Made by a program: the position numbers and the translations under genes
Part shown: piece by piece, positions 988 to 53,425 of the stretch
Position numbering within the stretch: the stretch's first letter is position 1
Layout: each line of letters begins with the position of its first letter
Source of the DNA: Rhizaria sp. SCN 62-66
Lineage: Eukaryota
DNA: 53,425 nucleotides
NCBI GenBank assembly: GCA_001724265.1
Contig: MEDY01000280.1
Location: 1 to 53,425 of the forward strand
Reading direction: 5' to 3'
Notes under the pieces: generated by a model
The model's database searches: none
What the model was told of the DNA's origin: nothing
The model's input: the letters and a program-made list of their open reading frames with translations, nothing else

Positions 988-2068
988 ATGAGCACGAAGA
1001 GTGAGGAGTGTTCCAACATCATCTCGGTGTTGGCATGCGTCCTTCAGCAGCTCTGCCTCCGCAACGACAGGGTACGTTGTATTTTCATGCCAGTGTTATA
1101 TTGCTATGCTCTTCATTTAGTTTAATTTATTGACTGCATTCTTTTGCGCATCTTCTGATGGGCTGAATGCATGCGTTTTGTCCACGCTTGTCGGCCGAGG
1201 TTTTCCTCCCCCTCCTGCACTATTCCCACTTCAGCTCCTCAGAAGGGGCGGAGAAAGCACCAGAGCTTGCATTTTCAGTCACTAATATCTATGCCATGTC
1301 CAACAATTCACTATATGCGCCGACACTCACGCCACATGTCCACTTTCCCTCGCTGTTTCTCTTTCGTCCGGCCATCCATCCGACCTCGTGTCAACTTCTT
1401 CGCCCTTCTCATGTGCTTGTTTCCGCCTCGCTACGCGCCCATTCCACCTGCTTTACTCTGACCACTCACCATCGCTTGTGTACCCCCTATAGATTCAGAC
1501 GACGAACCGGAACATCTCTAAGTTCCACGCCCTGCGTCCCCCGCAGATTTCCATCAAGGACTACCTTGCGCGTATCGCGCGCTACGCCCAGTGCTCCAAG
1601 GAGTGCTTCGTCCTCGCACTGGTGTACATCGACCGCATCATCCAGACCAACCCGTCGTTCATCGTCAACTCGCTCAACATCCACCGTCTCATCATCACCA
1701 GCGTGATGCTTGCGGCCAAGTTCTTCGATGACCAGTACTTCAACAACGACTACTACGGCAAGGTCGGCGGTGTTCCCTGCCACGAGATGAACTCCCTCGA
1801 AGTCGAGTTCCTCTTCATGAACAACTTCACACTGTTCGTCACGTCCGAGACTTACGATCAGTACTTCACAGAGCTATGCTCGCACGTCCAGTCCTCGGCC
1901 TGCGGCTGCACCTGCAAGGGCGACGCCGCGGCCGGCGCACCCGGGGGCGTGCCCGTCGGCGTCCCCGTCGCGGGCGTCGCGGGCACGGAGGCCGGCGGCG
2001 TCGCCGTCCACGGTCAGGCCATGACCGACGCGGCCCCCATCGCGCACCCCACCGGCTACGAGGCGTAA
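988..2068 (+). CDS. PHO80-like / cyclin-U (P-type) cyclin
   Basis: Exon 1 988-1071 (MSTKSEECSNIISVLACVLQQLCLRNDR), intron 1072-1492 (GTACGT...CTATAG), exon 2 1493-2068. Motifs FHALRPPQISIKDYLARI, CFVLALVYIDR, NIHRLIITSVMLAAKFFDD, YYGKVGGV, EMNSLEVEFL. Stop TAA. Confidence 0.95.
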
Positions 2069-3273
2069 ACAACAGTAAACACGCTTATTCACAACAAACG
2101 CAGAGCTTGCGTTTACCGCTCTTTTCCTAAGCTTCATTCTACGACCTGTTCTCGTCTTCGTTTTTGTTTTTGTTTTTTTTCGTCTGTATCGCTCCTGTGC
2201 CGCATCACCACCCACGCACACCACTGCTGCTTGTTGTCTCTCTGTTTGCGGCTGCTTCTCAACAATCAACAATCACACTCACACTCCCGCATCCGCGCTT
2301 TCTATCATCACTCAGGCGTGCATGCACAGAGCGACTCTCAGCCGCGTATGGTTGCATCAGCAAGCACACATACTGCTTGCTCATGATGCCTCGCGCCACT
2401 GGGCTGTTGTCGTGTATCACTGAAACGCTCCACTGTATACATGCCATGGTTCTCTGCTGCGCAATCTAGCAGAGGCGAGCCTGCGAAGCTGTGATCGAAT
2501 TGAACACTCTTATACGCACTGCTAGACTCGCCACACAGGGCAATACTGTACTGGCAGCGAGCCAGCGTGCAACGTTGCTCTGTGTGATGTGGTATGATGC
2601 GTTTGTCTTGAGGGATGCAATTTCGCAGTGAAGTGAGAGGATATGATCTACTCATTTGATATGATACGGATACGATATGATATGATAACAACGCGCGCCG
2701 CGGCCACGGGCCCCGGCGCCTTCCCTGATACCTGGTTTGTGTCCCTGCTGGTGTCGTTGCATCAGTAAGGGCACGTTTTAGTATTTTCCTTCTTTCCCTT
2801 TGTTCTTTTTTTAGTTTTTCTTTGTTTTACACTTTTCGTTTTGCCGTTGTGTCTGATATTGACCAAACAACTTATAATAACAAGTCTCTTTTAACTAATC
2901 ATGTTGTCTGAATAGAGAACTCCTTAATCCACCTGTGTTTACATCGTCTAACATGCGCCCACCACAAACGCGGTTGACAAGTCGTCTACGATCTGACCCT
3001 CACACCAACCTTGCGTTTTCAAACTTTGCTCACATAGCTGTTTCATGTCGAAATTTCCACACATAGCTACTGTTCCAAGATTATAAATTTGGTATAAATT
3101 CCGCATATCTATTAAAATCGTGTATACGTGTGATATGTCGAGCTACATCTTTCTTTTAGTATCTCTCTTTGAACATAGATCTGACCCAACTTGTCCCTCT
3201 TTGACTTTCTCACATTGTCTCCGCTAATCTCCACATGTAACGCATGCCTTATTGCCCACATAGCTTTCGCGCT

Positions 3274-4539
3274 ATGATTGCACTCCGGCGCACGTTGATA
3301 TTTGCAGCAGCCACGCTTTGCGTGCTGCACAGTTCTTTTAGCGGCGGGGCAGGTCTCACCCTCGTATCTGCTGCTGCTCCCTCGGGGACTGACTACAGCT
3401 CGCTGGGTCTGCCTGAGGCTATCACAGTCACCGCTGCCAGCGACGCTACCATGCCTGGCGCCGGCCGCGGCCGCGCGGGCACGCCCTTGCAGAACTTCCT
3501 GCCCGTCAGCAACGCCCCAAACAGCAACAATAACAACAACAACGCTGGCTCTTCATCTTCATCCTCGTCGGCGCGCACGTGCCCTGCGACCGTCCCCGGC
3601 GGCCTCGACTGCACGGTCTACTCCTCGCTTGTCTCCGCCGCCGCGGCCGCCGCTGTCTCGGCCACCCAGCGCGCATCGTCTGCCGGCCGCGAGTCCCTCG
3701 TCGTCCGCGGCTCTGGCTCTGCGTCGGCGGCCGTCACGCGCGCTCAGTTCACGGTCACCGTCGAGGTGAGCTCGCAGGACGTCTTCGCGGGCGCGCTGCA
3801 GGACATCACCACTCCTGTGTCCGGTCCCTACGGTGATGTGGAGCGGTGGTCTCGCGCCGCGGCGGAGCAGGCGATGGATCCTGCCCGCAAGAAGGAAGTG
3901 CTCTTCTGCGCGTCGTGCACCAACCGCGAGGCGGGCCGCCGCGTAACTTCCGTGCTCAACTACCTCGCCGCGCGCAACGCCAGCTACGTCGCCGAGCAGC
4001 TTGCGCAGCGCCGGCCCGCTGACGGTGCGATCGCCCCCCCGCGGACGACGTCGATGTCCCTGTCGCCGGAGTATGAGTACCGGGACAGCCGCCGCGAGCT
4101 GGCGGGGTACCGCGGCCGCACCACCGTCTCCGTCGACGTCCCCGTTGCGCTGGCCGCAGAAGTGCTTGATGGCGTGCTGGCCTCGGGCGCGACGTCCATG
4201 AGCGACGTCAAGCTGGCCGCCACACCGGCTGCGGTCGTCGCCGCGCAGCTCGAGGCGGACCGCGCCGCGGCACTCGCCGCCGTCGACCGCGCGCAGAACG
4301 TGCTCTCAGCGCTGCACGTGACGGGCACGTTCCCGCTCACGCGTGTGTCGATCCTCGGCGCGGGTGCCGCGGCGCAGGCGGGTGCGGGCGTCGAGAGCAG
4401 CGGCGGCGGATTGATGCGCGCCGCGTCGTTCGCGGCTGACTCGGGCAACATAGGCGCGACCGTGGGCGACGACGTTGTGGTCTACGGCAGCGTGGAGATC
4501 GCGGTGTCGTTCACTGATAACAACGCGGTTAACGTCTGA
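3274..4539 (+). CDS. SIMPL (DUF541) domain protein with N-terminal signal peptide
   Basis: Single ORF with a hydrophobic N-terminus from ATG 3274 (alternative ATG 3244). Pattern LVVRGSGSA...A.FTVTVEV, TTSMSLSPEYEY...LAGYRGRTTVSV, AAEVLDGVLASGATSMSDV, AAVDRAQNVLSAL and terminal VVVYGSVEIAVSF fits SIMPL/YggE/Bp26. Stop TGA. Confidence 0.8.
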   Translation: MIALRRTLIFAAATLCVLHSSFSGGAGLTLVSAAAPSGTDYSSLGLPEAITVTAASDATMPGAGRGRAGTPLQNFLPVSNAPNSNNNNNNAGSSSSSSSARTCPATVPGGLDCTVYSSLVSAAAAAAVSATQRASSAGRESLVVRGSGSASAAVTRAQFTVTVEVSSQDVFAGALQDITTPVSGPYGDVERWSRAAAEQAMDPARKKEVLFCASCTNREAGRRVTSVLNYLAARNASYVAEQLAQRRPADGAIAPPRTTSMSLSPEYEYRDSRRELAGYRGRTTVSVDVPVALAAEVLDGVLASGATSMSDVKLAATPAAVVAAQLEADRAAALAAVDRAQNVLSALHVTGTFPLTRVSILGAGAAAQAGAGVESSGGGLMRAASFAADSGNIGATVGDDVVVYGSVEIAVSFTDNNAVNV

Positions 4540-5667
4540 GTTGCCTGCGAGCCCTTTGTTCGAGTAACTGAGTCAATGTATAAAGCTCAGCATTGCATAG
4601 GCTTTTTAGTGCGACACTTTGCCGTGGCTGATGCAGCTGTCGAGGCAGAGACGCACTAGAAACACAGTATTCCAATGATTCTATTCGGAATAATGACAAT
4701 ACCTGACGTCTCTGCGATAAAAGTAACGAATTAGCGCGAACTAACGAATCAGCTCGATATCGCGAGCGCTCAAGTAGCAAGGGCCGTGTGGCGTGAAGCT
4801 GCGCGCCCCCGCTTTGACGCGGGATACCGCGCGCACACTGCACTTTGGCGAGAAAACAGGTCTTTGCAATACAAAAAACACGTAAAAAAACATATCTTCA
4901 AGTTGTACCAATAAAATATAGCCATTTGTTCCAGATTTTGTTCTTATTAAGAGTGCCGAACGAGACGACGCGCCGAGGCGCGAGGCTGCCGAGCTCGAGC
5001 GGCAGCGTCCGCGCCAGAGCGGGGACCGTGGGGAGGCTCGAGGAGCATTTTAAATTGGGCGATCTGTGGGGCAACGCTGGGACGGCAGGACAAACCAGGA
5101 ACCACGCAGACATGTTTTTAACACGATTATTTGCTTGGTGTTTAATCTATGCCAGCCCTTCCATGAGATTTGGGCTTCTGACACACGAGATAATTTCGCT
5201 CTCACGACCAGTCATAGTCGCTCTGTGGCAACGCCTTTTGGATCCTATTTGCTGAGTCCGATATGGTCCGCCCGACTTGCATGCGACAACTACGCCGTTT
5301 TTGTGTGCGTTAAATACCCAATCGGTGTAATCGGATCCCACCCTCTGCTGATCTGCGCCTGTCTGAGGCGTGATGGGGCGCCTTGAAACGGGCCTTTCGC
5401 TGCGCTGTCCGTTCCGCAAGAGCGTGCCTGTCCGCACTGCGTCCAAATTTCTTCGGGACAACTATTTTCTCTTCTACGACCACTCTCAACGTACACTTCT
5501 ATCTTATCCTTGTTTTTCCGCTTGTCAATCCTCTCGCCTCGCGCCACAACTGCTCCGCGCCTCCCCCTTCTTCGTCTCCGTCCGACTCGACTGCTTCTTT
5601 ACTTTTCTCTCTCCCCTGCCCGCGCCGCGCGCCCCACCCAAACAGTCCTTCGCTTTCCCCGCCCCCG

Positions 5668-7942
5668 ATGGACGACCCTAGCGGCGGCTCCCGCCTGCGC
5701 GGTGGAGGCAGCCCCGCGGGGGACCTCGTCTCCAGGACCGCTGCCCTCTCCCTTGGGCCCATGCCCCCGCCGTCGACTGCGTCGCCGGACTCGGTCTCCC
5801 CGCCGCCCATGCCCGCCTCGGCGTCGCCCTCGCTGCCCTCGGTTTCCACCTCCGGCTCCACGTCCGTGCCGGGCCCCAGCTCGGGCTCCTCCGGCGGCGA
5901 CGCAGACCGGCAGCGGCCTGTGTGCCACGGCTGCAAGCAAGTGATCACGACGACGCAGTTCATCCGCGTCTCGGGCTTCTGCTTCCACAAAGAACACTTC
6001 GCCTGCTCCGTCTGCAACAAGCTGCTCATGGACCAGCGCCCGCGCCAGCGCGACGGGCTCTTCTACTGCCCCGAGGACTACTCCCAGCGGTTCTGCCAGA
6101 CGTGCCGCGCCTGCGGCGAGAAGATCGTCGAAGGATCCATCATCCGCGCGCTCGGCGGGTATTACCATCAGCACCACTTCGTGTGCGTTGTGTGCCGCGA
6201 GCCGTTTAAGGAGGGCAAGTACTACGAGGCTGACGGTATGCCCTACTGCGTGGACCACTTCGCGGCGCAACAGGAGATCTGCGCCAAGTGCGCGCGGCCC
6301 ATCTCCGACGATGATTTCGTCACGCTGAAAGATAAGCCGTACCATGTCTCCTGCTTGCACTGCCACCACTGCCGCGTCCCGCTCGCCGGCAAGGCGTCGA
6401 TCTTCCAGAAGGACTCACACGTGTACTGCCGCGCTGATTTTCTCAACTTCTTCTGCAAGATCTGCACCGCGTGTGGTGAACATATCGTCAAACAGGTGCT
6501 CTCCGTCAACAACGAGTTTTACCACCCCGACTGCCTCAAGTGCGCCGTCTGCGACGTCAAGCTGAACCAGTACATCTCCGCGGGCGGGTACCTGCGGTGC
6601 GCGGAGCACACATCCACTCCGCTGCCGCAGCCCACGTGTTCTGTGTGTGCCCACCCCATCGCCGGCGAAGTCGTCATGTCTGCCGGCGCCAAGTGCCACC
6701 CAGACTGCTTCCGCTGCTTCACTTGCAACGCCCCGCTCGACAAGGCCAAGACGAAGCTGCGCGACGGCCGTTTATGCTGCACCGCGTGCCTCAACGCGGC
6801 TGCTGGCGGGCCGGGGGGATCGCCGCGCCTCGGCACGGGCTCCAGCGTCACTTCTTCTTCGTCGTCCTCGGGCGCGAACGGTGAGTCGAGGTCGCCGGGC
6901 CGTGGGACGCCGCGTGAGGACGGGCAGTTGCAGTCGCAGTTCTACCAGTCCCAGTCCCAGTCGCAGGCGCAGGCAAGTGACGTCCGCGCCGGTGTTGCCA
7001 ACAACAACGTGAACAACAACAATACCAACACACAGCAGTCGCAGTGGGGCGGTACGGCGTCCACGGCGGCCCACGGCGGGTTTAACTCGACTGCCAACAC
7101 CAACGCCCCCGGCGTGGGCGGCTCTATGCCCCCCAACGTTGGGTACAACAACAACGGTAACAACAACCAACAGCAGACGCAGCAGTCGCAGCCAGGTGGT
7201 GGGAGAGACGCGGTGCGCAACGCGCCCACTCGCGCCGCACCCAGCCACACGGTGCCCGCGCGCGACGCCCCCACTCTGTCCCCGCCCGCGCCCGCGGCGG
7301 CCGCGTCAACATCATCTTCGGCTGCGGCGTCGGCCGGAAACAGCAACAGCAACGCGCCGAGCAGCGCGCGGCGGCCCTTCCAGACCGTGGACGTATTTTC
7401 CGACTCGAACGACGGGCGGTGCGACATCGAGTGGAAGCGGGGCGAGATGGTCGGCAAGGGCTCGTTCGGCAAGGTCTACATGGGCATGAACACTAAAAAC
7501 GGCGAACTCATCGCGGTCAAGCAGGTGCAGTTGAACAGCGCCGAGGACGTCGAGGCAGCGCAGCAGATTCAGACCGAGATCACGCTGATGGAGAATCTGC
7601 GCCACCCCAACATCGTCACTCTGCTCGGCACGCAGCGCTCGGGCCAGAAGCTCAACATCCTCATGGAGTACGTGCCTGGCAAGTCGCTCGACGTGCTCTT
7701 AGAGAAGTTCGGCACGCTGACCGAGAAGGTGATCCAGCTCTACGCGCGGCAACTGCTCGACGCGCTCGCGTACTGCCACGAGCACGGCGTTGTGCACCGC
7801 GATATCAAGGGCAAGAACGTGCTGGTGGACACCAACGGCAACCTCAAGCTCGCTGATTTCGGCTCCGCCAAGCAGTTCCAGGTACGCTTTTTGAGCGATT
7901 TGATTTTGATTTGTTTATCAATTGATGCCTTGTTTCAGTTCT

Positions 7943-8006
<64 letters not shown>

Positions 8007-8426
8007 GTTTTATGTCCGTTTCTCAACTTATCATTACATTCACTCACTCTAATTCTAAAAATATATTTTTTCGATCTTCCACAGGACGTGATGCGCAAGG
8101 ACGCGCCTTCGCTGGGCTACAACTACACACCCTTGTGGACGGCGCCCGAAGTTCTCGTGGGCGACTACAACTCCAAGGTTGACATCTGGTCCCTGGGCTG
8201 CGTGGTGATCGAAATGGCCACCGGCAAGCCTCCGTGGGCAGAGCAAAACTTCGAGCACCCGTTCCGCGCTCTCTATCACATCGCGAACGAGAACTCGATC
8301 CCGCGCATCCCCGAGAGGCTGTCGCCGGAAGGACAGGACTTTCTTAGGCAGTGTCTGCGGCGCAACCCTGACGAGCGCCCCTCGGCCGCGGACCTGCTCA
8401 AGCACCCCTGGCTCGCAAAGGACTGA
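5668..8426 (+). CDS. Ser/Thr kinase (STE11/MAP3K-like) with five N-terminal LIM domains
   Basis: Exon 1 5668-7881, intron 7882-8084 (GTACGC...CCACAG), exon 2 8085-8426, joining ORFs 5383..8004 and 8088..8426 in frame. Five CxxC..HxxH/C..CxxC..CxxD/H/C units at 5923-6789. Kinase motifs WKRGEMVGKGSFGKVY, IAVKQV, MEYVPG, HRDIKGKN, DFG, WTAPE, DIWSLGCVVIEMATGKPPW. Start ATG is inferred. Stop TGA. Confidence 0.93.
7944..8002. repeat. 59-nt poly(T) homopolymer inside the kinase intron
   Basis: Uninterrupted T run read directly. Exact length may be unreliable in the assembly. Confidence 0.95.
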
Positions 8427-11057
8427 GCGAGCGCACAGTGCAAACTGCGATGCTATATGCTCAAGCACTTGGCTCGCCAAGGACTGCGTGCAAAAGCAAA
8501 AGAATGATGAGCATGTAACGGCTCTTAGTCTTAGTGTGAGTTTGAGTTTGAGTTGGATTTTTGAGTGGGAGTCTCAAGTTGAGCGCCAAAAAGAGAATTG
8601 CTGCCGCGAATGACAGTCTAATAGCACGACATTATCGAATGTGCACCGCATTTCTGCACCGCATTAAATCAGTGTAAAGAACGAAGAACTGAGTTACTGC
8701 AGTGTACACCGTTAGTGCCACGGAACGAATCACATTGCATTATTATCTCGTCGTGCATTCTATGGACGTACTGTGATGTGTCTTACAGCGCCGATTTTGC
8801 TTGTGTGTGTGCATGTGTAGAGTCATTGTTGAGTCCACACGCGCTAGGCTGTGCTTTCATTTGCCGTGCTTGAGCTGTTTGTTTGTCTCGATTTTCCGTC
8901 AGCTTTGATCTCTTCGTTTCTGTGTGTTGTGTTTAAAAATTATCGCTTCTGCTGAAACTGAAACACTGTAGATGTCGTCGTTCTAGCCCTTCCCACTCTC
9001 TTCTTGAATTTACCACTTTTGCTCTTGCTTGAACTCTCGTCTCACGTTGTTGCGTTGTCTGCGAAGTATCTTACAGCTATTACGCTACAAGAGCCCGGCC
9101 AATCCCCATGTAAGTCTACATGACTCCCCCAAATGTATGTATACCCATTCCTCCCCCTCTCTCTCTCTTGCAACCGTTTTTCTTTCCCTCTATCTTGTGA
9201 GTGCGACGACAGACACAACGAACACTTTGCAGTGCAACGCACCCGTGTTGTGCCATGCATGCGTGCACATATATGCATGTGCGACGTAATGGGTACGCTT
9301 GTGCGTTCGTCCTGGTGCTGAGATTAGGGAAAGGAAAGCAAGCAAGTGCGCCGCTCACGGGCCAATATCCCTTTGTCTGAGTGTGTGAGCGTTGCGTTGC
9401 GTTGATCAAGATGAAGATGAATTATAACAATGAACCTCGACATAATACTGCATTTTTTTCTTTTTGCTTTTGTATTAATGTGTGTGCGAGTGATCTAGGT
9501 GTGCGGTGATGCGATTTCGTGTGATTCGTCTTTTGCTGTCGCCTGTGTTTTTGCTTCTGTATTAAAAAATAATGTTGACGTTTGCTCATCATTCATTTCT
9601 TTGTTTCTTTTGTTCGAGCCTCGGCTTTTCATTTGTGTTTGCTTTCGTTTGTACCCCCCGATTTGTTTGCATATCCCATTAAACCATCTCTTCCTTAGCT
9701 CTGCTGTCCCAAGAACAATTACATCTCGAAGCCATAACAGGCCAGATTACTGTCACAAGCAAGCAGCAGGATCATACGCCCAACTGCGCTGTGATTTACG
9801 CTGCACCGTCGCTGTCACATCCACTGTCGCGGTCGGTGCCGCCGTCGCACGTGCTACTGCTGTTGTTGCTGCTGCTGCGGCTGCTGATCCTGCCGCAGCT
9901 GTTGCTGCTTGCTGCTCTCATTGTGTATCAGTCGTTGTTATTTCTGGCGTGTTTGTGTTTTATTTCTTTGTGTCACGGCTGCAGAGCTCCAGCTCGCTCT
10001 TTTGCTAGCCTCCCCCATTCTCTCTCTATCTTTGCGTTCTACCAAGCCTCTTCTGAGCGTCCGTTCGTCGTCTCCGGCGCCCCCGCGCGCTGCTCCGCTG
10101 CACAGTTGGCCTGTTTCACTGCGCCCGCGCCCTCTCCCAGATTCGGGGGCGTGGCGGGCAACGATTACGGGCCGGCACGAGCTGTGTCACACGCCACTCG
10201 TGGTGTGCAATCACACTTGTAAAGTGCAGCGAGGCGAGCGGTCAGCAGTTTAGTTGTCCCCCCTAGACGCGCCGACACGGCGATTATTATTACAAGTTGC
10301 ACTTCTAGCATAATAAATATCCTTGAAAATACCCGTTGTATCTTCTTTTGCGAATGAAAAGTGCCCATATCAAGATGGAATCGAGGCCCACCACACACGC
10401 TCCAGAGGGCGACTTAACTTTGGTCGCTTGCTGGAGAGCGAGTCAAACTATGGCACTGTGTGAACCTACTGAGGCTGGTGAGATCAAGGCCGTCCAGAGC
10501 TTCCCAACACCGTGTACACGGGGTATTATCTATTTCCTGATTTTTTGGCATCATTAGGTATCTTGTGTTTTAATCTTTAGTTGCCAGAAACTCGTGCTGG
10601 TAGCGTAGTGGCGGTGCTGGGGGAGGCCACCTCTCACCGACTATTCTAGAATGCGGACCAAACTCCAGAGAACGTCCGCGCCCGGCTGGGAGTGCTGAGA
10701 GGAATCTTAGCTCTGCCTCAAAATCCATAGGGCGCTTGCGTATTCTAATAATGCACTCTAAATATACGAAGCTTTCCTTTTTGTGCTCTAAACGCTACGC
10801 GTGTCGAGTGACATCGAGCGCGTTTTGTTTAGCGATTCGCTGACAAGCATCTTGTACTGCATCGCGCCGCGTCCCTATCGCTTTTGTTCCACTCTTGCAC
10901 AACTATGTTACGACATCACCCATCTTTGTATTAATATCTTACTCCCTGACTCTATTCCTGCATTCTTTTCTCCCGACCTGTTGCTTTTCGCACTCAATGA
11001 CGCCATCACTCCCACCGTCCACCTGAACAACTCTTGATTAGTTTACACACAGCAACC

Positions 11058-11837
11058 ATGGCTACCGTGAACAAGCAGGCCGAGGCCTACAAGGAGAAGG
11101 GCAACGACGAGTTCCGCAAGGGTGACTTTGCCAAGGCGATCGAGAACTACACGTACGCCACCGAGATGGACCCCAAGAACCCCGTTTACTTCACCAACCG
11201 CTCCATGTGCTACTTCAAGATGGGCGAGCACGCAAAGTCCCTCCGCGACGCCGAGAAGTCGATCAAGCTCAACAACAACTGGGTCAAGGGCTACTACCGT
11301 GCTGGCATGGCGCAGGTCGAGATGGGCCAGTTCAAGGAGGCTGTCAAGTCGCTGGAGCAGGCGGCTGCGATGGAGCCCGCGACCGCAGCATACTCCGAGG
11401 CCGCCGCCGACGCCAAGCGCCGTCTGATGGCCACCATGACCAAGGCCGAGGTGACCAAGTTCGAGGGCAACGAGCTCTTCAAGTCCGGTGAGATCGACAA
11501 GGCGCTGGCCAAGTACGAGCGCGCCCTCACTGAGGTCAAGCCCACCGACGAGAAGACCAAGGCCATCGTGTCCGACATCTACGCCAACATCGCCATGTGC
11601 CAGCAGCAGCGCTGGGACTACTCCTCCGTCGTCGAGTCGTGCACCAAGTGCCTCGAGTTCGCCCCGCAGCACGTCAAGGCGCTGGTCCGCCGCGCCCAGG
11701 CGTATGAGAGCCTCGAGAAGTACAAGGCCGCGCTCGCCGACTTCGATGCCGCCTCGGCGCTCTCGCCCGAGCTGGAGATCGCGTACAAGGGCGCTGTCCG
11801 CCTCCGCGGCACGCTCCGCAAGCTCGGCGAGCTCTAA
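11058..11837 (+). CDS. TPR protein with two TPR clusters (Hsp70/Hsp90 co-chaperone-like)
   Basis: AEAYKEKGNDEFRKGDFAKAIENYT, YFTNRSMCY, WVKGYYRAG, then KFEGNELFKSGEIDKAL, YANIAMC, HVKALVRRAQAYE. Strong C/G third-position bias. ATG 11058, stop TAA. Confidence 0.93.
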   Translation: MATVNKQAEAYKEKGNDEFRKGDFAKAIENYTYATEMDPKNPVYFTNRSMCYFKMGEHAKSLRDAEKSIKLNNNWVKGYYRAGMAQVEMGQFKEAVKSLEQAAAMEPATAAYSEAAADAKRRLMATMTKAEVTKFEGNELFKSGEIDKALAKYERALTEVKPTDEKTKAIVSDIYANIAMCQQQRWDYSSVVESCTKCLEFAPQHVKALVRRAQAYESLEKYKAALADFDAASALSPELEIAYKGAVRLRGTLRKLGEL

Positions 11838-12198: not shown

Positions 12199-12882
12199 TT
12201 ACGCGGACTCCTCAACGACGGCGGGGGCGTAGACGGACATGCCACCGGCGGGGGAGACGACCTTGAGGGAGCCGTTCTTGGTGAGCTCGCGAACCAGGCG
12301 GCGCGCCAGGGAGCCACGCCAACGGCGGAGTCGTAGAGCGCCTTGGTGAAGACGACACGGTTGTTCTTCTTCTCGCGGAGCTTGGTCTTCTGTGATTGGA
12401 CAGGAGAGTAGAGAGAGCAAGAGAGCGAGGAGAATCGAGACACAAGATGGAGGAGAGGGAAAGTGAGATTAAGCGAGCATATGTAGCGAAAGGTAGAGAA
12501 GAGTACAGTGGTGCTACAGAGGCACACGGCGGAGTTGAGGCCAATGCGGCAGGTCGGGAGGAATGAGATGATTACGAACCTTCTTGTTCTTGTTCTTAGA
12601 CTTCGAAGAGGACTGGGCAGCGAGAAGCTTGGCAGCCTTGGACTTCTGAACCTTGGGGGGCTGTGAGGTGCAACGAGAAAGATGATGAACACAACATAGA
12701 AAATGCACGTGAGCAACAGCGGCAACAAGAAGAGGACGGGCAGAGGCAATGGGGCAGGCAGCGAGTGGGCCGATCGACGCAATTGAAAAGAGAACAGAAC
12801 ACGCGAAATGCTCCGATATTAGGAATGTAACCAGATTGAATAGATATGATATCCCATAGAGAATCCTCACATGACGTACCAT
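12199..12882 (-). pseudogene. RPS25: 40S ribosomal protein S25 (eS25), frameshifted and internally deleted as assembled
   Basis: Exon 1 ATG 12882-12880, intron 12879-12661, exon 2 12660-12580 (PPKVQKSKAAKLLAAQSSSKSKNKNKK), intron 12579-12390, exon 3 12389-12199 = 191 nt (not 3n). KTKLREKKNNRVVFTKALYD is in one frame and GSLARRLVRELTKNGSLKVVSPAGGMSVY in another. Family identity is secure; pseudogene versus assembly error is not. Confidence 0.75.
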
Positions 12883-38100: not shown

Positions 38101-40691
38101 ACTCTGGCTCTTTAGGTTCATTCCTGTCACCCCACGGCGGGCTCACGCTGGCCGCATCAGGCCCTGGCTCTCCTCAGGGGGCGCCAGCAGGCACCGCTCG
38201 GCTGTCCTTGCTGTCGCCCACGTCGCCCTTCGCTGGGACGCAGCGTCTTTCTCAATCGCCTCCCCTTGCTCGCGCGGGTATCGCAGGCTCTCCACCGCTG
38301 CAGCAGTCTGCGCTGCCCGCAGCAGCCGCCGACAGCTCTCCCAGTGTTGACAGCAGCGCCGACTCTGCTGCGCTCGCCGCGTCCACGCAACCGCCGTCGT
38401 CCGCCGCGCTTGCCGCGTCGCAGGCGCTCACCGCGCTGCTGGCCGAGGCCGCTGAGCAGAACGGCGCGCCGCGCCTCGGCTCTGCTGCGGGCGCGACCGC
38501 GCTTGGCCGGCTGCTGCGCAAGCTTGCCACGGGCTCCGGCGCGGATGCCGTCACTGCCATGTCGGCCGCTGGCGCCGCCGCTGGTTGGCAGCGCCACTCG
38601 CGCAGCAGCTTCGCGGCTGCCGTTGCACCCGGTGGCCTCGGCTCGATCGCACTCTCTGCCGCTGCGGCTGCGGGCGGCGTGCTTACTGTCACCCCCGCCG
38701 TCACCGCGCTCGCTCTGACGGTCGGTCCCCGCGACGCGCAGCCGCTCGCACCCACCGTGACGCCGCAGTGCGCCGACGCCGCCGCCCCGGTCCACACGCC
38801 GGAGCGACTGCTGTCTCTCGCTGCAGTGGTTGCGGAGCCCTGGGTTCCTGCGACCGTCGTCGCTCGCGTCGCGCGCAGGCACGCCGCCGCCGCTGCGGTC
38901 CTAAGCGCCGCCGCAGTCGCCATGGGCGCCAGCGCGAGCAGCAGCACTGACGTCAGTCGCGCTGCGGCGACGCGTGTGTACCTCGCGGCGCCCAGCTCGG
39001 CCCCCGTCGGTGCGATGACCGCTGTCGATCCGCTTGCGGTCGCTGCCGTGCACGGTCTGCTGGCGACCAGCGCGGCTGCCGGTAGCGTCTCGTTCGCGGC
39101 TGTCGGTCCCGAGGCTGTGGCCTCCGCTGGTGCCCCAGTGGCGGCCGACGCGGCCGTGCTTACAGTTGAGGCGCAGTCTGCGCCCGCAGCGCGCCGCCGC
39201 GACGCACTACTGCAGCTGCGCACCGCTGTTGCCGTGGCGGCGCGTGAGCAGGCGGTCGCGGTTTCCGCCGCGCTCAGTGCTGCTGTTGAGAGCGCGTTTG
39301 AGGAGGCCCGCGCCGCCGCCGCTCTCGCCGCCGAGGCTGAGGTGCACAAGGCGGCGGTGGCCGCTGCGATCGCTGAAGAGAACGCGCACGCCATTGCGGA
39401 AGCTGAGGTCGACACAATCACAGGTACCAAGTCGCCTGCTGATGCGCTGACCGCTTTCCTCGAAAGCTCCGATCCAGCAGTCACTGCACCCATCCCCATC
39501 GGGAGCAGCAACAAGACTGCCGTTGTTGCCTCTCCGACAACGCCTGCGCCCAAGGCGAGCCCCGTTGCCGACACCGGCAGGGAGCTCTTTATGCCTGTGG
39601 TCTCCGTGTCTACGGTGACTGTGCCCGACGTTCCTGTGACACCGCTGCCGACTCTCGAGACTCCTGGCTCGCTTGGTGACAGCGTTGCGACCCGGGCGCT
39701 CTCAGGTCGCCAGCAACGTGCGTTATTGGGCCAATTTATGTCGAGTGTCGTGGCCGCTACAGACGTGCTTACCGCTGCAGAGGAGGAAGGCTCTGCTGAT
39801 CTCTCTGCGTTTGTGCGCGCCGACGACGGTCCTGCACACGAGCGCGGCAGCGCCAGGTTGGTGCTGCTCGCGCTTTCTGTGCCTACTAGTGTACACAAAG
39901 CCGCACAGGTCGCCGCTGACGGTGACGACACCATCGATGACAGTGACGATGACGGTGAAGAGGGCGCCGCTGCCGAGTCGGAGTCTGCTCGCGAGAGTAT
40001 AAGTCTGGCGGAGCTGTTGCTGCCGCGCGGCGAGCGCCGCCTTGCGTGCGCCAGGCTCGGATTCTCGTCCGTGTTATCAGGCGCCCGGGCCTACGCCTCC
40101 GCTGTGCGTGCGGCCGAGCGCCGCGCGCACGAGGGCGCTGAAGAGCATGAGGTGCGCGCGCGCGTGCGCACTCGCACCCTCCGCGAGCTCGAGATTGCCG
40201 AGCTTGGCATCGCGGGCGATGAGGCCGCCGCCGTCGCTGCAGCGGAGGAGGACGAGCACCTCGGCCTTGCCGCGCGCGCGAGGGCTGCCCATGCGGCGAC
40301 GCTCGCGGCGCGCGGCGGCGTCACGCTCGCAGAAGGTGGGTTCAGTGCAGGTATTAGTCTTGCAACCCCGCCTGTTGCGGCCGAGCTTGCCAGGGTTGCT
40401 GCGGCCGCGCAAGCGGCTGTGGCGGCTGCAGCTGCTGCTGAAGCTGCGGCCGCGGCACAGGCTGCTGCCGAGGCCGAGGCTGCTGCTGTTGCCGCTGCGA
40501 CCGCCGCCGCCGCTGCGGAGGCTGATGCAGCGCGCCGGGCGGCTGGCAAGGGCTCATCGAGCAGCGGATGGCCCGGCTCTCCCGGCCAGAGCGACAACGA
40601 CGCTGCCGGATCCGCCGTAGGTGGCGAGGGCGACGGCAAGAAAACGGTCAAGGCACGTCTCTCGTCGGTCATTAACTGGTTCAAGAAGTAA
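14118..40691 (+). CDS. Giant BEACH-domain protein (ConA/LamG-like, PH, BEACH, WD40-like), about 8857 aa if the internal TAG at 30234-30236 is read through
   Basis: ORFs 14118..30236 and 30279..40691 share a frame and are separated by one TAG. ConA-like YSFACWVRL...GRWCHVVLSH...LTVDG (~16626-17140). PH-BEACH VLVTPL..KGVLSI...LPLSDLR...[104 protein letters not shown]..PHP. Final stop TAA. The start codon is uncertain. Confidence 0.88.
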
Positions 40692-47400: not shown

Positions 47401-47512
47401 TGCCGCGGTGACGTCGACCACTGCGGGGCTCACCGGTGCTCTAAGCGCCCCGGCCGCCGCGCTCTCTGCGGGCCCTGCTGCTCTCGCCGCCGCGCTTCCT
47501 TTCCCGTTCTAA
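44493..47512 (+). CDS. Secreted fasciclin (FAS1) domain protein with long Ala/Thr/Pro-rich mucin-like tail (969 aa)
   Basis: Exon 1 44493-44703 (signal peptide ...ATICLALASCVALAFAQ), intron 44704-44813 (GTACGT...TCACAG), exon 2 44814-47512. FAS1 motifs TTLLAPVKSA (H1), IKYHVIP, EVASSNGALHIISS (H2). Stop TAA. Confidence 0.88.
46670..46870 (+). repeat. Coding 9-nt tandem repeats (PTA/PTV tripeptides) in the fasciclin tail
   Basis: Repeated CCCACTGTG/CCCACTGCG units giving PTAPATPTAPTVPTVPTVPTAP. Confidence 0.8.
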
Positions 47513-47816: not shown

Positions 47817-50800
47817 TCACCGAGTGCCAGCCTTAACTGGCGCAGCAGAGCTGCGCGCAATGAGCGACCGACGCAAGACGTCGCTGCCGCCTGCTGCTGG
47901 AGCCCCAGTCACGGGACCAGCGCGCGGCAGAAGCCCACGCGCAGCAACCGGACCGGCAACTGCAGTCGCGGTCATCGGAGGCCGCGTGCCGTACGTGGCG
48001 CGCCCGGAGCTGGCGCCGGCGGCGGCGCGCATTGTGGACGCGCGCGAAGACACGGGCACGTGGCCAGACGGGCGCAACAGCGGTGCTGGCGCTGGAGTCG
48101 CTGCCGTGACAGCGGCTGACACGCCACGCACGCCGGATGTAGACGAAGCAACAGCGGGAACGATGCGGGGGCTGGGCATGCTCTCAGCAGTGCTCGCGGC
48201 AGACGCGGTGGAGAGAGTCAGCGCTGGGACAGACGCGTACGTCGGGACGAACGTGCGTGCGGAACCGGGGGGCTTGAGCGCCTGCGCAAACTGCAGCGTT
48301 GCCTGCGACTCGGCGGCGTCCTCAACGTCGGTCGACGCGCAGAGTAGGAACATCACCTTAGCGGCGCCGGTGCGGAGCGCGGGGCCAGAGACAGTGTCGT
48401 CGCTCGAGGCCGCAGTGGAGGGCTTGTACAGCGAGTCACGCAGCGACACCGTCAGGCGCGAGTCGCGGAACGGGACGTGCTTCGCCTCCTTGGCACTGCC
48501 AGCAATGTCGACGAGCGCCTTGACGCACTGGCCCAGCGTCGAAAGAGAAAGATTGATCGATTTCATCTCGTGAAAGCCCGCGTCGCCGCCGGCGGACGAG
48601 TCGACCTGTGACTTGTCCAGCCGCTCCGAGCCGGCGAGATCGACCAGCGTCAGCATCGACCACGGGGTCGCGACAGGCTCGGCAGCAGTAGCTGAGGCGG
48701 TGGCTGCCGCGGGCGCAGGGGCAGTCGCGGTGGCGGACGAGCGGCGCGTGACGCGAGCGGGCGCGACAGCAGCAGCCGGTACAGCAGCGGCGTTACCGTA
48801 GTCGATCTTATCGATGAAGAGCTTAACGACGAGGTGCGAGCGCGACGACGCAGCGTTAGCGGCAGTGTAAGCTGTGGCGCGGTTGCGTACAGCGGCAGTA
48901 ACGAGAAACTCGACCTGCGCGGGCGTTGTGACAGGAACAGTCGCGAACGACATGGTGCGCTCGATCTGGTACAACACACCATCAGGCAGCTCTGACTTGG
49001 CATCCTCTGCATCAGCAGCTCCGGCCAAGGCGGCCCACAACGCGGTGGGCGTCATCGCTGGACGCTCAGCGGCGGCAGCACGGCGCAGGACATCGCGCCA
49101 GCCACCGGTCTGCGTGTCCAGCAGGTCGTACGTTTCGTTGTTGTACACCTGGTACGCGCAGACGCGCAGCCGGTACTCCTCCTTCGGCTTTGCATCGGCT
49201 CCACTCATGTTTGAGCGGGCACGGGCGCGGCGCGTGGCGAGCTCGGCGAACACCGCGTCGACAGCGCGCGGCATCACACCGGCTTGCTCCGACAACGCGT
49301 GGGTGGAGGCAGAGTCCGAACCAGCATTCGCGGAGGACGCGATAAGAGCACGGCCCGAAGGCACGCTCCAGTCGCCGACCATCGTGTACGTCTTGCCAGA
49401 GCCCGTCATGCCATACGCGAGGATGGTCACGGGGCATCCATTGAGGCTTGACTGCACAAACTCGTGGACCGCGGCGTACGTCTCCTGTTGCGACGTGCTG
49501 GCGGGCAACACGCGGTCGAGCGCGTACTGAGTCGCCTGGTCGCGCGTCTGCACTGTGACGAGCTCGCTGCCGTCGGAGCTGCGGCCGGGCTGAACAAACA
49601 CGACCTCCGCGCGCGGGCCATCGCCTGCGGTGCGGCGCGACGCGGTCGGGTTCACGGACTGCGGGCGCAGGCGCAGATACACGCGCACGCGCCCGAAAGC
49701 CTCGATGAGCTGCTCGCGAATCCGGAACAGTGTCGCCGACTCGTCGCGCGCAATCTGCGAGAACTTGTCCGCATCAGCGCGCGCGGCGTTGAGCTCCTGC
49801 TGCAGCCGCGCCGCCTCGTCGGCGCTTTGCTCGAGCTGCTTTTGCAGCGCTGCGGTCACCAGCGCAGTCTTGCTTGCGGCCGGGGATGTCTGCGAGGACG
49901 CAGATGCGAGGGCCTGAGATTGAATTTGAGCCTGCGCCACCAACGCCTGCACTTCCGCGCGTGCGGCCTTGAGCTCATTAGCAGCCTTTGTGGCCGCTGC
50001 TTCAAGCGCAGCATCGTGCTGCGCAACCACTGCTTCAAGTGCAGCTTTGTGGGTGTCAGCGGCCTGCTTAAGAGCTTCGATCTCAGCCTGAGCTGCGCTG
50101 GCGTCGGAAGCCCGCTCGGCGCGTTCGTACTCGAGCTCTTCACGCAGCGCTTGAAGCGCGGCTGCGTGCTCTGTCACAGCAGCAGCATTTGCAGCGGCGA
50201 CAGCGGCCTTTGTCGCAGCGACGGCGCTTTCCGCGGTAGTGGCAGCGGCGAGTTGGCGGCGCAGCTGCGCTGCCTCGTCCTTGTACTTGTTCGCCGTGTC
50301 GCGCTGTTCCTTGAGCTGCTCCTCCCGGCGGCCAAGGTCCCGCTGCGTCGACTCGACTAGCTTGTCCTTCTGCTTGATCTTGGCCTCCAGCACTATCACG
50401 CGGTCCGCCACAGTTTTGCGCGCCACCTCGGCGTCGGCTGCGGCCGCCTCAAGCTCCTCCACGCGCTCCGTCGCCTCGTCAAGCTTCGTCTCAACCTTTT
50501 CGCGAGCTTTAAGCACTTCATTGAGTTCGGCCTTGCAATCTTTCAAGCGCTTCTCGACATGCTTCGTCGCTGCCTGCGCCGCCTCGAGCGACCTCTGGGT
50601 CGCGTCGACCAAACGGCACTTCGCCTCGTATGTGCGTCGCGGCACCACGTCCTGGGGTGCACTGCCTGCGAGCGCCGGAGCAGCCAGAGCCAGTGCAGCC
50701 TGATTCGACGCAGTCGCAGTGGGCGCAGTCACTGTTGCCACCATGGGCGCAGTGGGGAGCGTCTCGCCTTCATCGCTCGCGTTGACTGCAACAGCGGTGG

Positions 50801-52568
50801 CAGCAGCGGCTGCCGCAGCAGAGGTGCGGGCGACAGCAAATGCATTCGAAGGCGAGACAGTTGCAGTTGCGTTTTGACGCGTGCGCGCGCTCGAGCGCAT
50901 TGATGTAGAGCGCTTGGCAGTGGGGCGAGCATTCGAGCGCGCGGAACCCGCGCTCCTAGCCACACTGGCGCGGCGTGCGGACTTGTCGTCTTCGCTCTCA
51001 TTCTCGCTCTCGGTCCGGCCGCCGCGCGGCGACCTTAGCGGGGGCTCGCGAGCACGCGCGTCGTCTCCACTGCCTTCATTGTCGTCGTCGCTGTTGCCAC
51101 CGTTCTCGCTGCCGCTAACGCTAGTGGGCATGCTGAGGCGCGCCGACTTGCGCCGCGCGGGCGCAGACGCAGTGTGAGAAGCAGGAACAACAACAAGAGA
51201 CGCAGCGCGGGCGGCTGCAGAAACTGCAACAATAACAGGCGCAAGCTCAGGCTCTTGGTCTGAGGCCACGGGAACGCTGCGCTGCGGACGGCCCAGGTTG
51301 GACCGAATTCCGACAGTCTTGGGGCGCAAAGCGGGCTCCTCAGCCGCGGAGGCAACGGCAACGGCAACATCACCGGTGACAGCGTCGGTCTTCGCCGCGT
51401 CGCTGCCGTAAGCGTTGACCTCGTGGGTGGCAGCGCTGACAGCGATGGAGGTGCGGCGCAGAGCCATCTTGCCCTCATCCTTGCGTCCTAGCACGCTGAT
51501 AATGCCGCGCCCACTCGCACGCACCCCGGGCTCGGCAATAATAGGCTGCACGGCAACGCTCGCAGCGGCGGCGGCAGCGGCGGCCGCAGTGCGCGCGATA
51601 GCGGCCTGTCCGTGTGCTGAGAGCTAGGGCTTGCCGCGGGCCAGCAGCGCGGACGCGTCCATCGCGCTGCGGTCGCAGTCAGTGCTCACAGACTGGCGGC
51701 GCGCGGACCGGCGCGGCGCCACAGCGACGGCCTCGGGCGGCGACGCCAGCGCCGCCGCCGCAGCGGCCGCGGCAGCAGCAGGGGGCGCGAGGGAAGTGCG
51801 CTTGGGCCGGGGACTGATGACCGCGGACGCAGCGTCCGCGTCCGCGTCGTTATCATCATCGCGAGCAGCGGCACCGGCCGCAGTTGCTGCGTCGGGCTCG
51901 GCAACAAACGTTTCGTGCGAGCGGCGCTTTGAGCCGGCGCGCGCACGCGTGTGCACGACGGGGGGCGCAGCGCCGTCATTTTCTTCGCTAGCTGCGGGCG
52001 CAGCAGTGGCCGCAACTGTGGGCGCAGCAGCAGGCGCAGCAGAAGCTACGGGGGTCGCAGGAACGCCGGTAGTTGCGACGGCGTTGGTTACGGGGACAGA
52101 GGAACGTGAGGCCTTGCTTATGTGACAAGCGCGGAGAACAGAAGCAGAATCAGCAGAGGTTGCGGCAGAGGCAACTGAGGAAGCACCTGGAACAGTGGAA
52201 ATTGAGCGAGCTGCGGACCGGAGCTCGTTCGTTTTAATGTCGCGGAGCTTCTCATTGGTAAGGGCGTCCAAGTTGCTGTTTGTGAGCTCCTTTGTGTTCG
52301 TGGGCGCGACGAAACGTGACAGCAAGCCCTTGCTCGAACTCGCGACACCAGTGCTGGGACGCCGGAGCACGAGTCCGCTTGTGTCAGGCCGCAGCTGTGC
52401 GGAGGCGGGCAAAGGCGCGCGGGATGACACACCACGTGATGTGAAAAGCGGAGTCGTTATGCTTCCTTGTTTCTGTGAACTGCTCGCGACGCACGTAGCA
52501 GGAGGAACGAGGGGAGGCCTGTTCTCCCCAACTGGACGGGGACACGATGCCACGGACCTCGAGTACAT
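47817..52568 (-). CDS. Kinesin-14-like motor (N-terminal tail, coiled coil, motor domain), about 1583 aa if the internal TAG at 51626-51624 is read through
   Basis: ORFs 51624..52730 and 47817..51551 share a frame and are separated by one TAG. Coiled coil followed by neck IREQLIEAFGRVRVYLRLRP, AYGMTGSGKTYTM, NAASSRSH, LVDLAGSER, INLSLSTLG, HVPFRDSRLT. ATG 52568 is inferred. The end is TGA 47819-47817 unless the overlapping GTGAGT is a splice donor. Confidence 0.85.
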
Positions 52569-53329
52569 CGCTGGTGACGCGGTTCTGGAGTGGATAAGAA
52601 AAGAGCGGGTATATATAAAGTCAAACATATTCAAAGTTAGCAACACGGTGACATTTCCTTCATTGGAGAAAAAAAATATCAATGTTTGAAGGACGGTCCC
52701 AAGCTCGACAGCTTTAGGCTTGTCGGTCACAAAGAATACGATGATTTCGCACTATTTAGTAGCTGTAATGCTGAAATAATACCAAGAGATGACAGGAACT
52801 TAAAAATATATTCCAGATAAACATTATCATCGTGATAATAACGACTCTAAAATGCGGGAAGTTCGTTAAAAGTTTGCAGTCCACTGCGCGGTGCTAGGCT
52901 TCTAACGGTCACTTTTGGTGTTCAGCCTTTTTCTTACAGTCACCGACACATGGTAAGAGGACAGAATACAGAGTCAGAGGGAGAAGACGTGGCTGCAGAA
53001 AACCAAAAATAGCATTATTTTTAAAACAATAAAGAGACGAATTTCTAACAATGGTTTGTATTCATTAAGACACTGGATAACGACCGAGACGCGCCTTACG
53101 AAGTGAGTCAGCAAGACGCGCACCGCGCCCGCGCTCGCAGTGCCGTGCGGGACGAATACGACCAGCGGCGACAAGAACATATCCTTGCCGCGCCAGAGTG
53201 CCCACACTAAGTCTGTTGACTGTAACGCGCAATGGTAAGTTGGAGCGCGGCGCAGCCTTCAGGGAAGGGTGACTGCAGCAGACGGTAGTCGAGAGTCTGC
53301 GAGTTGGGGTAGTGCTGAGGTAAGCGCAC

Positions 53330-53425
53330 TTAGAAGCCGTACTTGGCGAGCTCGGCGTTGATGGGAGCAAGCTCCTTGGAGGCGGCGGCAATAGCCTTGG
53401 CCTGGAGCTTGGCAACCTGCTTCTT
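53330..53425 (-). CDS. RPL13A: 60S ribosomal protein L13a (uL13), C-terminal fragment
   Basis: KKQVAKLQAKAIAAASKELAPINAELAKYGF-TAA resembles the eukaryotic uL13 C-terminus (KK....L...A...LA.YGY/F) and has ribosomal-protein-like codon bias. Only 31 residues are visible. Confidence 0.7.
   Translation of the reverse strand, partial: KKQVAKLQAKAIAAASKELAPINAELAKYGF

Follow-up and report, generated by a model that had tools for sequence, protein, structure and literature searches.

Genes and gene ends of the window

The window is a 53,425-nt stretch of DNA from Rhizaria sp. SCN 62-66 (contig MEDY01000280.1) in which ten terminators could be placed. Seven of these are TAA, and end the genes for a cyclin (2066), a TPR (STI1-like) protein (11001..11837, forward strand; TAA at 11835, with the C-terminus in register with its orthologues), a copy of eS25 (12199..12660, reverse strand; TAA at 12199), a giant alanine-rich PH-BEACH protein (14118..40691, forward strand; TAA at 40689), a DUF1761 protein (reverse strand, 41002) and a fasciclin protein (47510), as well as a C-terminal fragment of 31 codons, with no family match, at the edge of the window (reverse strand, 53330). 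The other three are TGA, and belong to the SIMPL gene (4537), the LIM-kinase gene (8424; the kinase domain ends at 163/166) and a kinesin gene with a C-terminal motor (47817..52568, reverse strand; TGA at 47817). All ten stops lie where the sequence-only reading of this DNA had placed them. The TAA at 12199 is counted with the caveat that its eS25 copy, which contains one GTTCGT..CACAG intron, is missing some 20 codons and has a frameshift between 'ALYD' and 'RGSLAR'; the absent segment was looked for elsewhere in the window and was not found. Lesions therefore occur either in the assembly or in the organism, and genuine premature stops have to be reckoned with.

Across 13,297 modelled sense codons TAG occurs in frame twice, at 30234..30236 in the PH-BEACH gene (forward strand) and at 51624..51626 in the kinesin gene (reverse strand), and TAA and TGA do not occur at all. 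This bears out the earlier statement that TAG is found only inside genes, and twice; UAA and UGA act as pure terminators here. The modelled codons contain no frameshift, and the two off-frames of the same coding sequences hold 465 TGA, 71 TAA and 63 TAG triplets.

The lack of TAG among the ten gene ends had been regarded as suggestive, a view that did not survive. Zero in ten is not significant, because it is expected by chance with a probability of 35% if TAG makes up 10% of terminators and of 11% if it makes up 20%. Moreover, the accessible part of Panek et al. (2017, PMC5304391) reports that nearly all genes of Guttulinopsis vulgaris, which uses the standard code, end in UAA, and a like preference in a standard-code relative leaves the tally without weight. 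The real signal is the two internal TAGs, which as features exceed what chance would give, not the missing TAG terminators.

Two in-frame TAG codons

The PH-BEACH gene runs for 8,858 codons in a single frame, and its sole interruption is the TAG at codon 5373. This codon, which lies 35 codons upstream of 'SNFDYLL', falls within a conserved motif of the PH-BEACH linker, S-[x]-x-x-x-R-[DN]-x-V-Y-x-x-L-C. The coding score is 0.33 bits per codon upstream of the TAG and 0.35 downstream, where a further 3,485 codons are open and keep the full score. The kinesin gene (Pfam Kinesin, 1.8e-56) comprises about 1,583 codons from an ATG near 52568 to its TGA, and is likewise interrupted only once, at about codon 315, in a low-complexity N-terminal region that has no alignable homologue. 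Here the frame-specific coding score runs positive across the TAG to about 52450, the frame upstream of it has candidate start methionines at its codons 41 and 61, and the roughly 1,268 codons on its 3' side show no frameshift, no further stop and no loss of coding score. Both TAGs are thus genuine, lie in frame and have coding sequence on either side. The distance between them is 21.4 kb.

Two separate genes were considered at each site and ruled out, since the coding score continues without a break and an AT-rich spacer is absent. At the PH-BEACH site the first methionine downstream of the TAG falls inside the BEACH domain, with none between the TAG and the start of that domain, which excludes a separate downstream gene.

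Assembly error does not explain the PH-BEACH TAG. Two studies (2017 and 2025) besides the probable source of the window have contigs that span it without a difference, namely X3 record 2 (29588-30745) and X4 record 11 (30156-30907). The window is a metagenome assembly whose eS25 lesion could itself be an assembly flaw, and the contig comparison covers 20 kb around the PH-BEACH TAG, with the kinesin TAG lying outside it; nevertheless, errors would not favour substitutions that leave 8,858 codons otherwise open, and sequencing or assembly error is a highly improbable account of the two codons.

The site in the PH-BEACH gene could be aligned with 18 distant BEACH proteins that cross it, drawn from the 1,251 proteins (E ≤ 0.001) that an HMMER search of 1.84 billion representatives returned. 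In that search the sole close match (P0246, 5,337 aa) ends precisely at the TAG, and is the organism's own product. In a word-based search with region 5173-5572, the shorter proteins gave BEACH-domain matches only, covering at most 38% of the query (among the 120 matches listed, all but one cover at most 31%), and a scan of metagenome contigs with the BEACH segment gave 584 pattern stretches and no relatives. All 18 homologues have a residue at the TAG column and none has a gap; the preceding position is serine in 9 of 18 and position +4 is arginine in 15 of 18. The column itself is variable, with glycine in seven, serine in three, valine and alanine in two each, proline, glutamate, asparagine and glutamine in one each, and leucine in none. 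With a single alignable site of this kind, the amino acid at either TAG is not assignable from these data, and the glutamine proposed from sequence alone finds no support in a column where it occurs in 1 of 18 homologues.

Splicing, truncation and readthrough

Three introns in the window are verified; they are 190-428 nt long, with a GC content of 0.22 to about 0.47, pyrimidine-rich 3' ends and donors of the form GTNCGY. The reference among them, in the LIM-kinase gene (7882..8084, forward strand), begins GTACGC and ends ACAG, measures 203 nt with a GC content of 0.22 and contains a long poly-T stretch; the cyclin intron ends in ATAG. TAG is the only stop codon that doubles as a YAG acceptor, so that TAG in frame, in contrast to TAA and TGA, can look like a change of code. 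If each of the two TAGs is taken to close a short phase-0 intron with a length divisible by three, then the standard code would suffice. Two candidates fit this description, which the earlier claim of UAG as a sense codon had not considered: 30192..30236 (forward strand; GTGCGT..GCTAG, 45 nt, in frame, GC 0.64) and 51624..51689 (reverse strand; GTGAGC..CCCTAG, 66 nt, in frame, GC 0.73), the latter of which could also be an intronised piece of exon. In one form of this explanation, mutation to TAG would have created the acceptor and a cryptic in-frame donor upstream would have rescued the gene; in either form, splicing would take out 15 and 22 codons.

Both segments have GT..AG ends and begin with a donor-like hexamer. 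At least five matches to the six positions of GTRAGT within 30-120 nt upstream are found for 1,035 of 11,581 codons (8.9%), and the joint chance of such hexamers 45 and 66 nt upstream of the two TAGs is about 0.8%, by a criterion chosen post hoc. GTGCGT also fits GTNCGY, the pattern of the verified donors, a feature shared by 8.5% of codons. In size and composition, however, the candidates fall far outside the range of the verified introns. The codon usage of the 66-nt segment is strongly exon-like, its score being reached by only 0.1% of off-frame windows; among in-frame windows the 45-nt segment ranks at the 13th percentile, a score reached by 5.6% of off-frame windows. The serine before the PH-BEACH TAG, which matches 9 of 18 homologues, would have to be intronic. 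Ordinary short introns would mostly break the frame, yet the 8,858 and about 1,583 codons of the two genes show none that do. With regard to RNA, no piece among those listed bridges the PH-BEACH TAG unspliced, the X6 pieces flanking it at 25391-27782 and 30705-39436, and no splice joint at this TAG is among the 15 of 216 joints listed for the 20-kb comparison.

Exitrons, and introns that arise by nonsense-driven intronisation, are exon-like segments within a coding exon that are bounded by GT..AG and have a length divisible by three. The 45- and 66-nt segments resemble them in each of these respects; they differ in being far smaller than the three verified introns, and their splicing is that of candidates only. 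Taken together, mini-introns, whether ordinary or born of mutation and cryptic rescue, are an unlikely explanation of the two TAGs.

Genuine premature stops under the standard code are rather less likely still. The TAGs would then mark alleles, null or truncated, that have become fixed in a near-clonal lineage, or else a single allele in a heterozygous organism. About 65% of the single-step nonsense changes open to the codon usage of the window yield TAG, so that two TAGs would arise by chance with p ~0.42; the restriction to TAG, on which the earlier claim had leaned, is what random nonsense would also produce. Both genes are very long and hence large targets, the eS25 copy has a deletion and a frameshift, and the population is near-clonal (over 20 kb, X3 has no differences and X4 has two), which means that persistence from 2015 to 2025 is no proof of selection. 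On the other hand, natural isolates usually show far fewer nonsense-bearing genes than two in about ten. In neither gene has the sequence downstream of the TAG gathered a frameshift or an extra stop, a BEACH protein severed between its PH and BEACH domains would be null, and three assemblies all have the PH-BEACH TAG.

A further explanation retains the standard code and has near-cognate tRNAs read through these two TAGs only, by leaky or programmed readthrough, giving mostly truncated and some full-length protein. In eukaryotes a C at position +4 after a stop codon is a leaky context. The kinesin TAG is followed by C and both genes are open downstream; the PH-BEACH TAG, in contrast, is followed by T, and the two sites share no common context. 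RNA structure on the 3' side of the TAGs is nothing unusual (z +0.9 and +2.4), which argues for a general mechanism rather than a readthrough device local to these sites. A PH-BEACH unit made by rare readthrough alone is also hard to rationalise, and this explanation is very unlikely.

Placement of the organism and decoding of UAG

The TPR gene was used as a marker in order to place the organism. Its protein is 65% identical to that of G. vulgaris, 59.5% to a protein from the 'Lygus hesperus' TSA and at most 50% to the next group. In a tree, these three sequences fall in a clade supported at 100/99 (19 among 28 rows), within which they form a polytomy, the window sequence not being placed beside the exLh-like one. 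The organism therefore groups with named sainouroids on the evidence of one protein, and the clade may extend beyond Sainouroidea. The Lygus protein (P0017) we infer to be that of exLh, the database label being Lygus hesperus; the TPR gene is not among the genes in the accessible part of the PMC5304391 supplement.

A scan of metagenome contigs with the TPR protein gave eight loci, of which the sole close one (L001; 1.6 kb, 83% identity) has a gene ending in TAA. Another, L002 (63% identity), lies in the same TPR clade, and there an Enkurin domain ends at 530/537 and is followed by TAG as a true terminator; a code with UAG as sense is therefore not clade-wide. A scan of genome contigs for the organism or close relatives returned three irrelevant bacterial or archaeal loci only. 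DNA of the window is present in bioreactor or wastewater metagenomes and recurs in public data from 2015 to 2025. This fits the occurrence of sainouroids (Rosculus, Guttulinopsis) in wastewater plants, as reported in the accessible part of PMC8827150.

The best single explanation of the two TAGs is that UAG encodes an amino acid in this organism, with termination only at UAA and UGA, and we give it a probability of about 0.5. Two codons cannot prove such translation. Consistent with it, PH and BEACH are needed in one polypeptide and no methionine intervenes, which supports passage through the TAG, and the grouping with Guttulinopsis and an exLh-like sequence gives the idea a strong prior. The earlier proposal of UAG as a sense codon thus keeps its place as the leading explanation, with no weight left to the terminator count and with the TAG-only pattern weakened as an argument. 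In mechanistic terms, a tRNA whose anticodon is CUA would pair with UAG and not with UAA, and/or an eRF1 with weakened recognition of UAG would spare it; translation would in that case carry on through both TAGs and yield the PH-BEACH-WD40 protein and the kinesin at full length. The window contains no tRNA gene and no eRF1 gene, and we infer, rather than observe, genome-wide decoding of UAG, its residue and its tRNA or eRF1 basis.

To our knowledge, exLh is the only rhizarian with UAG read as leucine. In the accessible part of its description it is a sainouroid found in a Lygus TSA, with UAA and UGA as stops, 384 in-frame UAG codons in 71 genes, terminators divided among 56 UAA, 15 UGA and no UAG, and an eRF1 with alanine at the position of human Leu69, a substitution linked with the recognition of UAG (Panek et al., 2017, PMC5304391). 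The window resembles exLh in that UAG alone occurs in frame, in genuine coding sequence at two sites, in that UAA far exceeds UGA with no UAG at gene ends (7:3:0 against 56:15:0), and in its position within the same wider clade as Guttulinopsis in the TPR tree. It differs in that its usage, two in about 13,300 codons, is some 100-fold lower, which counts against UAG as sense; in that exLh has leucine at conserved columns, whereas the one alignable column here has leucine in 0 of 18; in habitat, exLh living inside an insect and this organism in wastewater reactors; in composition, with a coding GC of about 70% where the exLh supplement sequences seen are not GC-rich; and in lacking a resolved sister relationship with the exLh-like sequence. 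On even odds, then, a code of the exLh type operates here at very low usage.

Other codes offer partial parallels, as far as the accessible parts of their sources go. Iotanema spirale, an unrelated metamonad, reads UAG as glutamine and stops at UAA and UGA (PMC5304391); it shares the uncoupling of UAG from UAA and the use of UAA as main terminator, whereas glutamine occupies the column here in 1 of 18 homologues. In an oligohymenophorean ciliate UAA and UAG code for different amino acids (PMC10553269), so the two codons differ in meaning as they would here, but both are sense there and UAA is the main terminator in the window. The context-dependent codes of Condylostoma, Parduczia and Blastocrithidia (PMC5304391) also place stop codons inside genes; they have UAA and/or UGA in frame, in contrast to 0 of 13,297 codons in the window.

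We propose only tentatively, with the odds against it, that this is a free-living wastewater sainouroid, distinct from exLh, in which the reassignment of UAG is at an early stage. The codon would be gone from gene ends and barely reappearing as sense, at about 1.5 per 10,000 codons, either as a 'captured', near-empty codon that it shares with the ancestor of exLh or as a second, independent UAG-only reassignment in the clade.

Reassignment of UAG alone in a nuclear code is known from very few lineages, and a translated TAG here, if true, would add a further case of the exLh type at far lower usage. If the TAGs are instead the ends of mini-introns or rescued nonsense mutations, they are a warning on inferring a change of code. 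The authors of the exLh study called for a survey of sainouroid genomes that would date the code change (PMC5304391, accessible part). The present organism is represented by long genomic contigs, through which its tRNA and eRF1 genes would come within reach, as those of exLh, known from a transcriptome only, did not. Since its UAG codons are so few, the organism could show the first steps of a stop-codon takeover, and, if the early-stage interpretation is true, the order in which loss of UAG stops, a tRNA(CUA) and the change in eRF1 came about would be readable from real genomes.

Genes and gene ends of the window

The window is a GC-rich eukaryotic contig with few introns, in which coding stretches have a GC content of ~70% and the spacers and introns are AT-rich; no tRNA was found in it. 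Its DNA is present in bioreactor, wastewater and activated-sludge runs of 2015–2025 from several studies, and the organism is therefore uncultured. On the forward strand, a PHO80-type cyclin (ending at 2066), a TPR protein (11001–11837), a giant PH-BEACH protein (14118–40691) and a fasciclin protein (44771–47512) terminate in TAA, and a SIMPL protein (3241–4539) and a LIM-domain kinase (ending at 8424, with one intron at 7882–8084) in TGA. On the reverse strand, eS25 (stop at 12199), a DUF1761 protein (stop at 41002) and 31 C-terminal codons at the window edge (53333–53425, stop at 53330; ...AELAKYGF, without a Pfam match) terminate in TAA, and a C-terminal-motor kinesin (stop at 47817) in TGA. 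The kinase intron has a GC of 0.22 in a gene with a GC3 of 0.81, and contains ~70 T in an unbroken run at 7935–8003. The PH-BEACH-WD40 protein is of extreme length (8,858 codons), alanine-rich and intronless, with big low-complexity inserts even within its PH and BEACH domains.

The ten stops comprise 7 TAA, 3 TGA and no TAG, all found where the sequence-only reading had placed them. The absence of TAG terminators, taken alone, carries little weight: if TAG truly made up 10% of stops it would arise with a probability of 0.35, and if 20%, with one of 0.11, in keeping with the earlier judgement that zero of ten is not decisive. TAA is the chief terminator (7/10) despite a gene GC3 of 0.7–0.9; a preference for UAA is likewise reported in PMC5304391 for Guttulinopsis vulgaris and for Rhizaria sp. 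exLh, a sainouroid with UAG read as Leu. Just two stop codons, both TAG, interrupt the 13,297 modelled sense codons in frame: one at 30234–30236 (+) in the PH-BEACH gene (TAG#1) and one at 51624–51626 (−) in the kinesin gene (TAG#2), in agreement with the two internal TAGs noted beforehand. TAG#1 stands between ...RQRAS and YAARD... in the translated frame, and TAG#2 between ...ARGKP and LSAHGQ.... The off-frames of the same coding sequences hold 465 TGA, 71 TAA and 63 TAG.

Two TAG codons internal to genes

TAG#1 is internal to a single gene. It lies 35 codons upstream of the start of the BEACH domain ('SNFDYLL'), and the first Met past it falls within that domain, so a second gene cannot begin after TAG#1. 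The GC around the site remains 0.68 and the coding score is equal on either side. One protein in the databases, 5,337 aa long, terminates exactly at TAG#1 and shows how gene callers using the standard code cut the gene. Logan contigs of four public sequencing runs (X3–X6, RNA included) were compared over 25000–44999, a span with TAG#1 inside and TAG#2 outside. TAG#1 is spanned with 0 differences by contigs of X3 (record 2, 29588–30745) and X4 (record 11, 30156–30907), from two studies of which neither is the probable source; these contigs rule out an assembly error at TAG#1, and assembly or sequencing error as the origin of the TAGs is extremely unlikely. No other letter at TAG#1 was found in any of the four runs, and no RNA contig spans it among the RNA pieces listed. 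Studies from 2017 to 2025 point to an almost clonal population (differences over the 20 kb: X3 0, X4 2, X5 ~15), and the persistence of TAG#1 among runs is no demonstration of purifying selection.

TAG#2 is also internal to its gene. In the kinesin frame the frame-specific score for coding is positive through TAG#2 to ~52450, and Mets at codons 41 and 61 of the frame upstream place the kinesin start near 52568 and TAG#2 at about codon 315. Moreover, the 157 bases from TAG#2 to the next in-frame ATG have a GC of 69–78%, unlike every spacer in the window.

Eighteen distant BEACH proteins crossing TAG#1 were aligned, and all 18 have a residue in its column (G in seven, S in three, V and A in two each, and P, E, N and Q once each). 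The column belongs to a motif, S-x-x-x-x-R-[DN]-x-V-Y-x-x-L-C, in which position −1 is S in 9/18 proteins and in the window, followed by R at +4 (15/18), Y at +8 (12/18), L at +11 (13/18) and C at +12 (11/18). With the column filled and homologous residues on both sides, TAG#1 therefore stands at a genuine residue position. The column itself is variable and names no residue: its eight residue types include Leu in 0/18 and Gln in 1/18, which leaves the suggestion of Gln made from the sequence without support and bears out the accompanying view that the residue is not assignable. No close relative spanning TAG#1 was found by metagenome contig scan or protein searches, and TAG#2, in low-complexity sequence, has no alignable homologue.

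Splicing, decay or translation of the TAG codons

TAG alone among the stops doubles as a YAG splice acceptor, and each TAG might close a short GT..TAG mini-intron. In-frame segments with lengths divisible by three do end at both sites, 30192–30236 (45 nt, GTGCGT) and 51689–51624 on the reverse strand (66 nt, GTGAGC). By a criterion chosen post hoc, with the data already seen, an in-frame 5/6 match to GTRAGT lies within 30–120 nt of 8.9% of codons (1,035/11,581), so that both sites would have one by chance at ~0.8%; an in-frame GT of any sort lies within that distance of 87% of codons. The candidate segments, however, have a GC of 0.64 and 0.73, whereas the three verified introns are 190–428 nt long with a GC of 0.22 to ~0.47, and are pyrimidine-rich at their ends (LIM-domain kinase GTACGC..ACAG, cyclin GTACGT..ATAG, eS25 GTTCGT..CACAG). 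The 66-nt segment has exon-grade codon usage, its score being reached by 0.1% of off-frame windows, and the Ser at −1 of TAG#1 would become intronic. Usual short introns, moreover, would mostly break the frame, and ~10,400 codons of the two genes are without a break. Mini-introns are thus unlikely, although most of these objections are evaded by 'intronisation', the rescue of a TAG-creating mutation by a cryptic upstream splice donor.

Real premature stops are a little less probable still. About 65% of single-step nonsense changes from the window's codon usage yield TAG, so the restriction to TAG is not diagnostic, and a lesioned gene does occur in the window. The eS25 gene (12199–12660, −; one intron from 12579 to 12390) has a frame shift in its second exon between 'ALYD' and 'RGSLAR': 'KTKLREKKNNRVVFTKALYD' (PDB eS25 residues ~30–50) and 'RGSLARRLVRELTKNGSLKVV...' (~70–104) are in different frames with 11 bases between them, and ~20 codons that every eS25 chain in the PDB contains are gone and were not found elsewhere in the window. 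The gene copy is defective or else misassembled, and lesions therefore occur in the organism or in the assembly. Two nonsense alleles in ~10 genes, followed by thousands of codons with neither frameshift nor second stop and with an undiminished coding score past both TAGs, are nevertheless unlike decay. Readthrough local to the two sites is improbable: they share no context (T follows TAG#1, C follows TAG#2), and no stable structure lies 3' of either (z +0.9 and +2.4).

We give a probability of about 0.5 to translation of UAG, under a code of the exLh type or one at an early stage, with UAG still sparsely used. The proposal from sequence of UAG as a rarely used sense codon, with UAA and UGA kept as stops, is partly supported: its two in-frame TAGs, one at a residue position, are the stronger signal, and its terminator tally is weak.

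Affinity of the organism

The TPR protein, for which the database lists a contig of 133 kb, is 83% and 77% identical to two database relatives (P0002 and P0003). Its nearest named relatives are a G. vulgaris sequence from EukProt (65%) and, at 59.5%, a UniRef entry under the label 'Lygus hesperus'; the next group has ≤50% identity. In a maximum-likelihood tree of this one 259-residue protein, with outgroup rows lacking taxon names, 19 of 28 proteins form one clade (support 100/99) containing a window group (100/99), a Lygus-labelled group (97/93) and a Guttulinopsis group (98/92). exLh was a contaminant of a Lygus hesperus transcriptome and was placed in Sainouroidea beside G. vulgaris (Panek et al. 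2017, PMC5304391); the Lygus-labelled protein probably derives from exLh or a close relative. The window's organism would, on its 259-residue protein, be a sainouroid or near to one. Indeed, Rosculus and Guttulinopsis are reported from wastewater plants (PMC8827150).

For exLh, PMC5304391 reports 384 in-frame UAG over 71 genes, with 56 UAA and 15 UGA terminators; for G. vulgaris it describes UAA at the end of all transcripts but one and no in-frame stops, and for Rosculus one gene terminating in UAG. Two exLh transcripts in its supplement file 1 start with a nearly identical short A-rich stretch just ahead of the ATG; it resembles a common 5' leader and has no bearing on the window.

As a limit on the reading of UAG as translated, the window lineage is not joined to the exLh-like lineage in the TPR tree. 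A more distant clade member, on a metagenome contig (L002; 425 kb, GC 54%), joins the window, Lygus-labelled and Guttulinopsis groups as a polytomy. Its Enkurin-domain gene (4629–6242, −), which suggests a flagellate, ends in TAG, with the domain end at residue 530 of 537. L002 terminates at TAG, so that any real reassignment does not extend to the whole clade. A second L002 gene (15978–17711, −), probably a nucleotide-sugar transporter, likewise ends in TAG.

If UAG is indeed translated, the window would represent another case of an already known code type, within the clade of its discovery, and in an organism accessible via public wastewater data.
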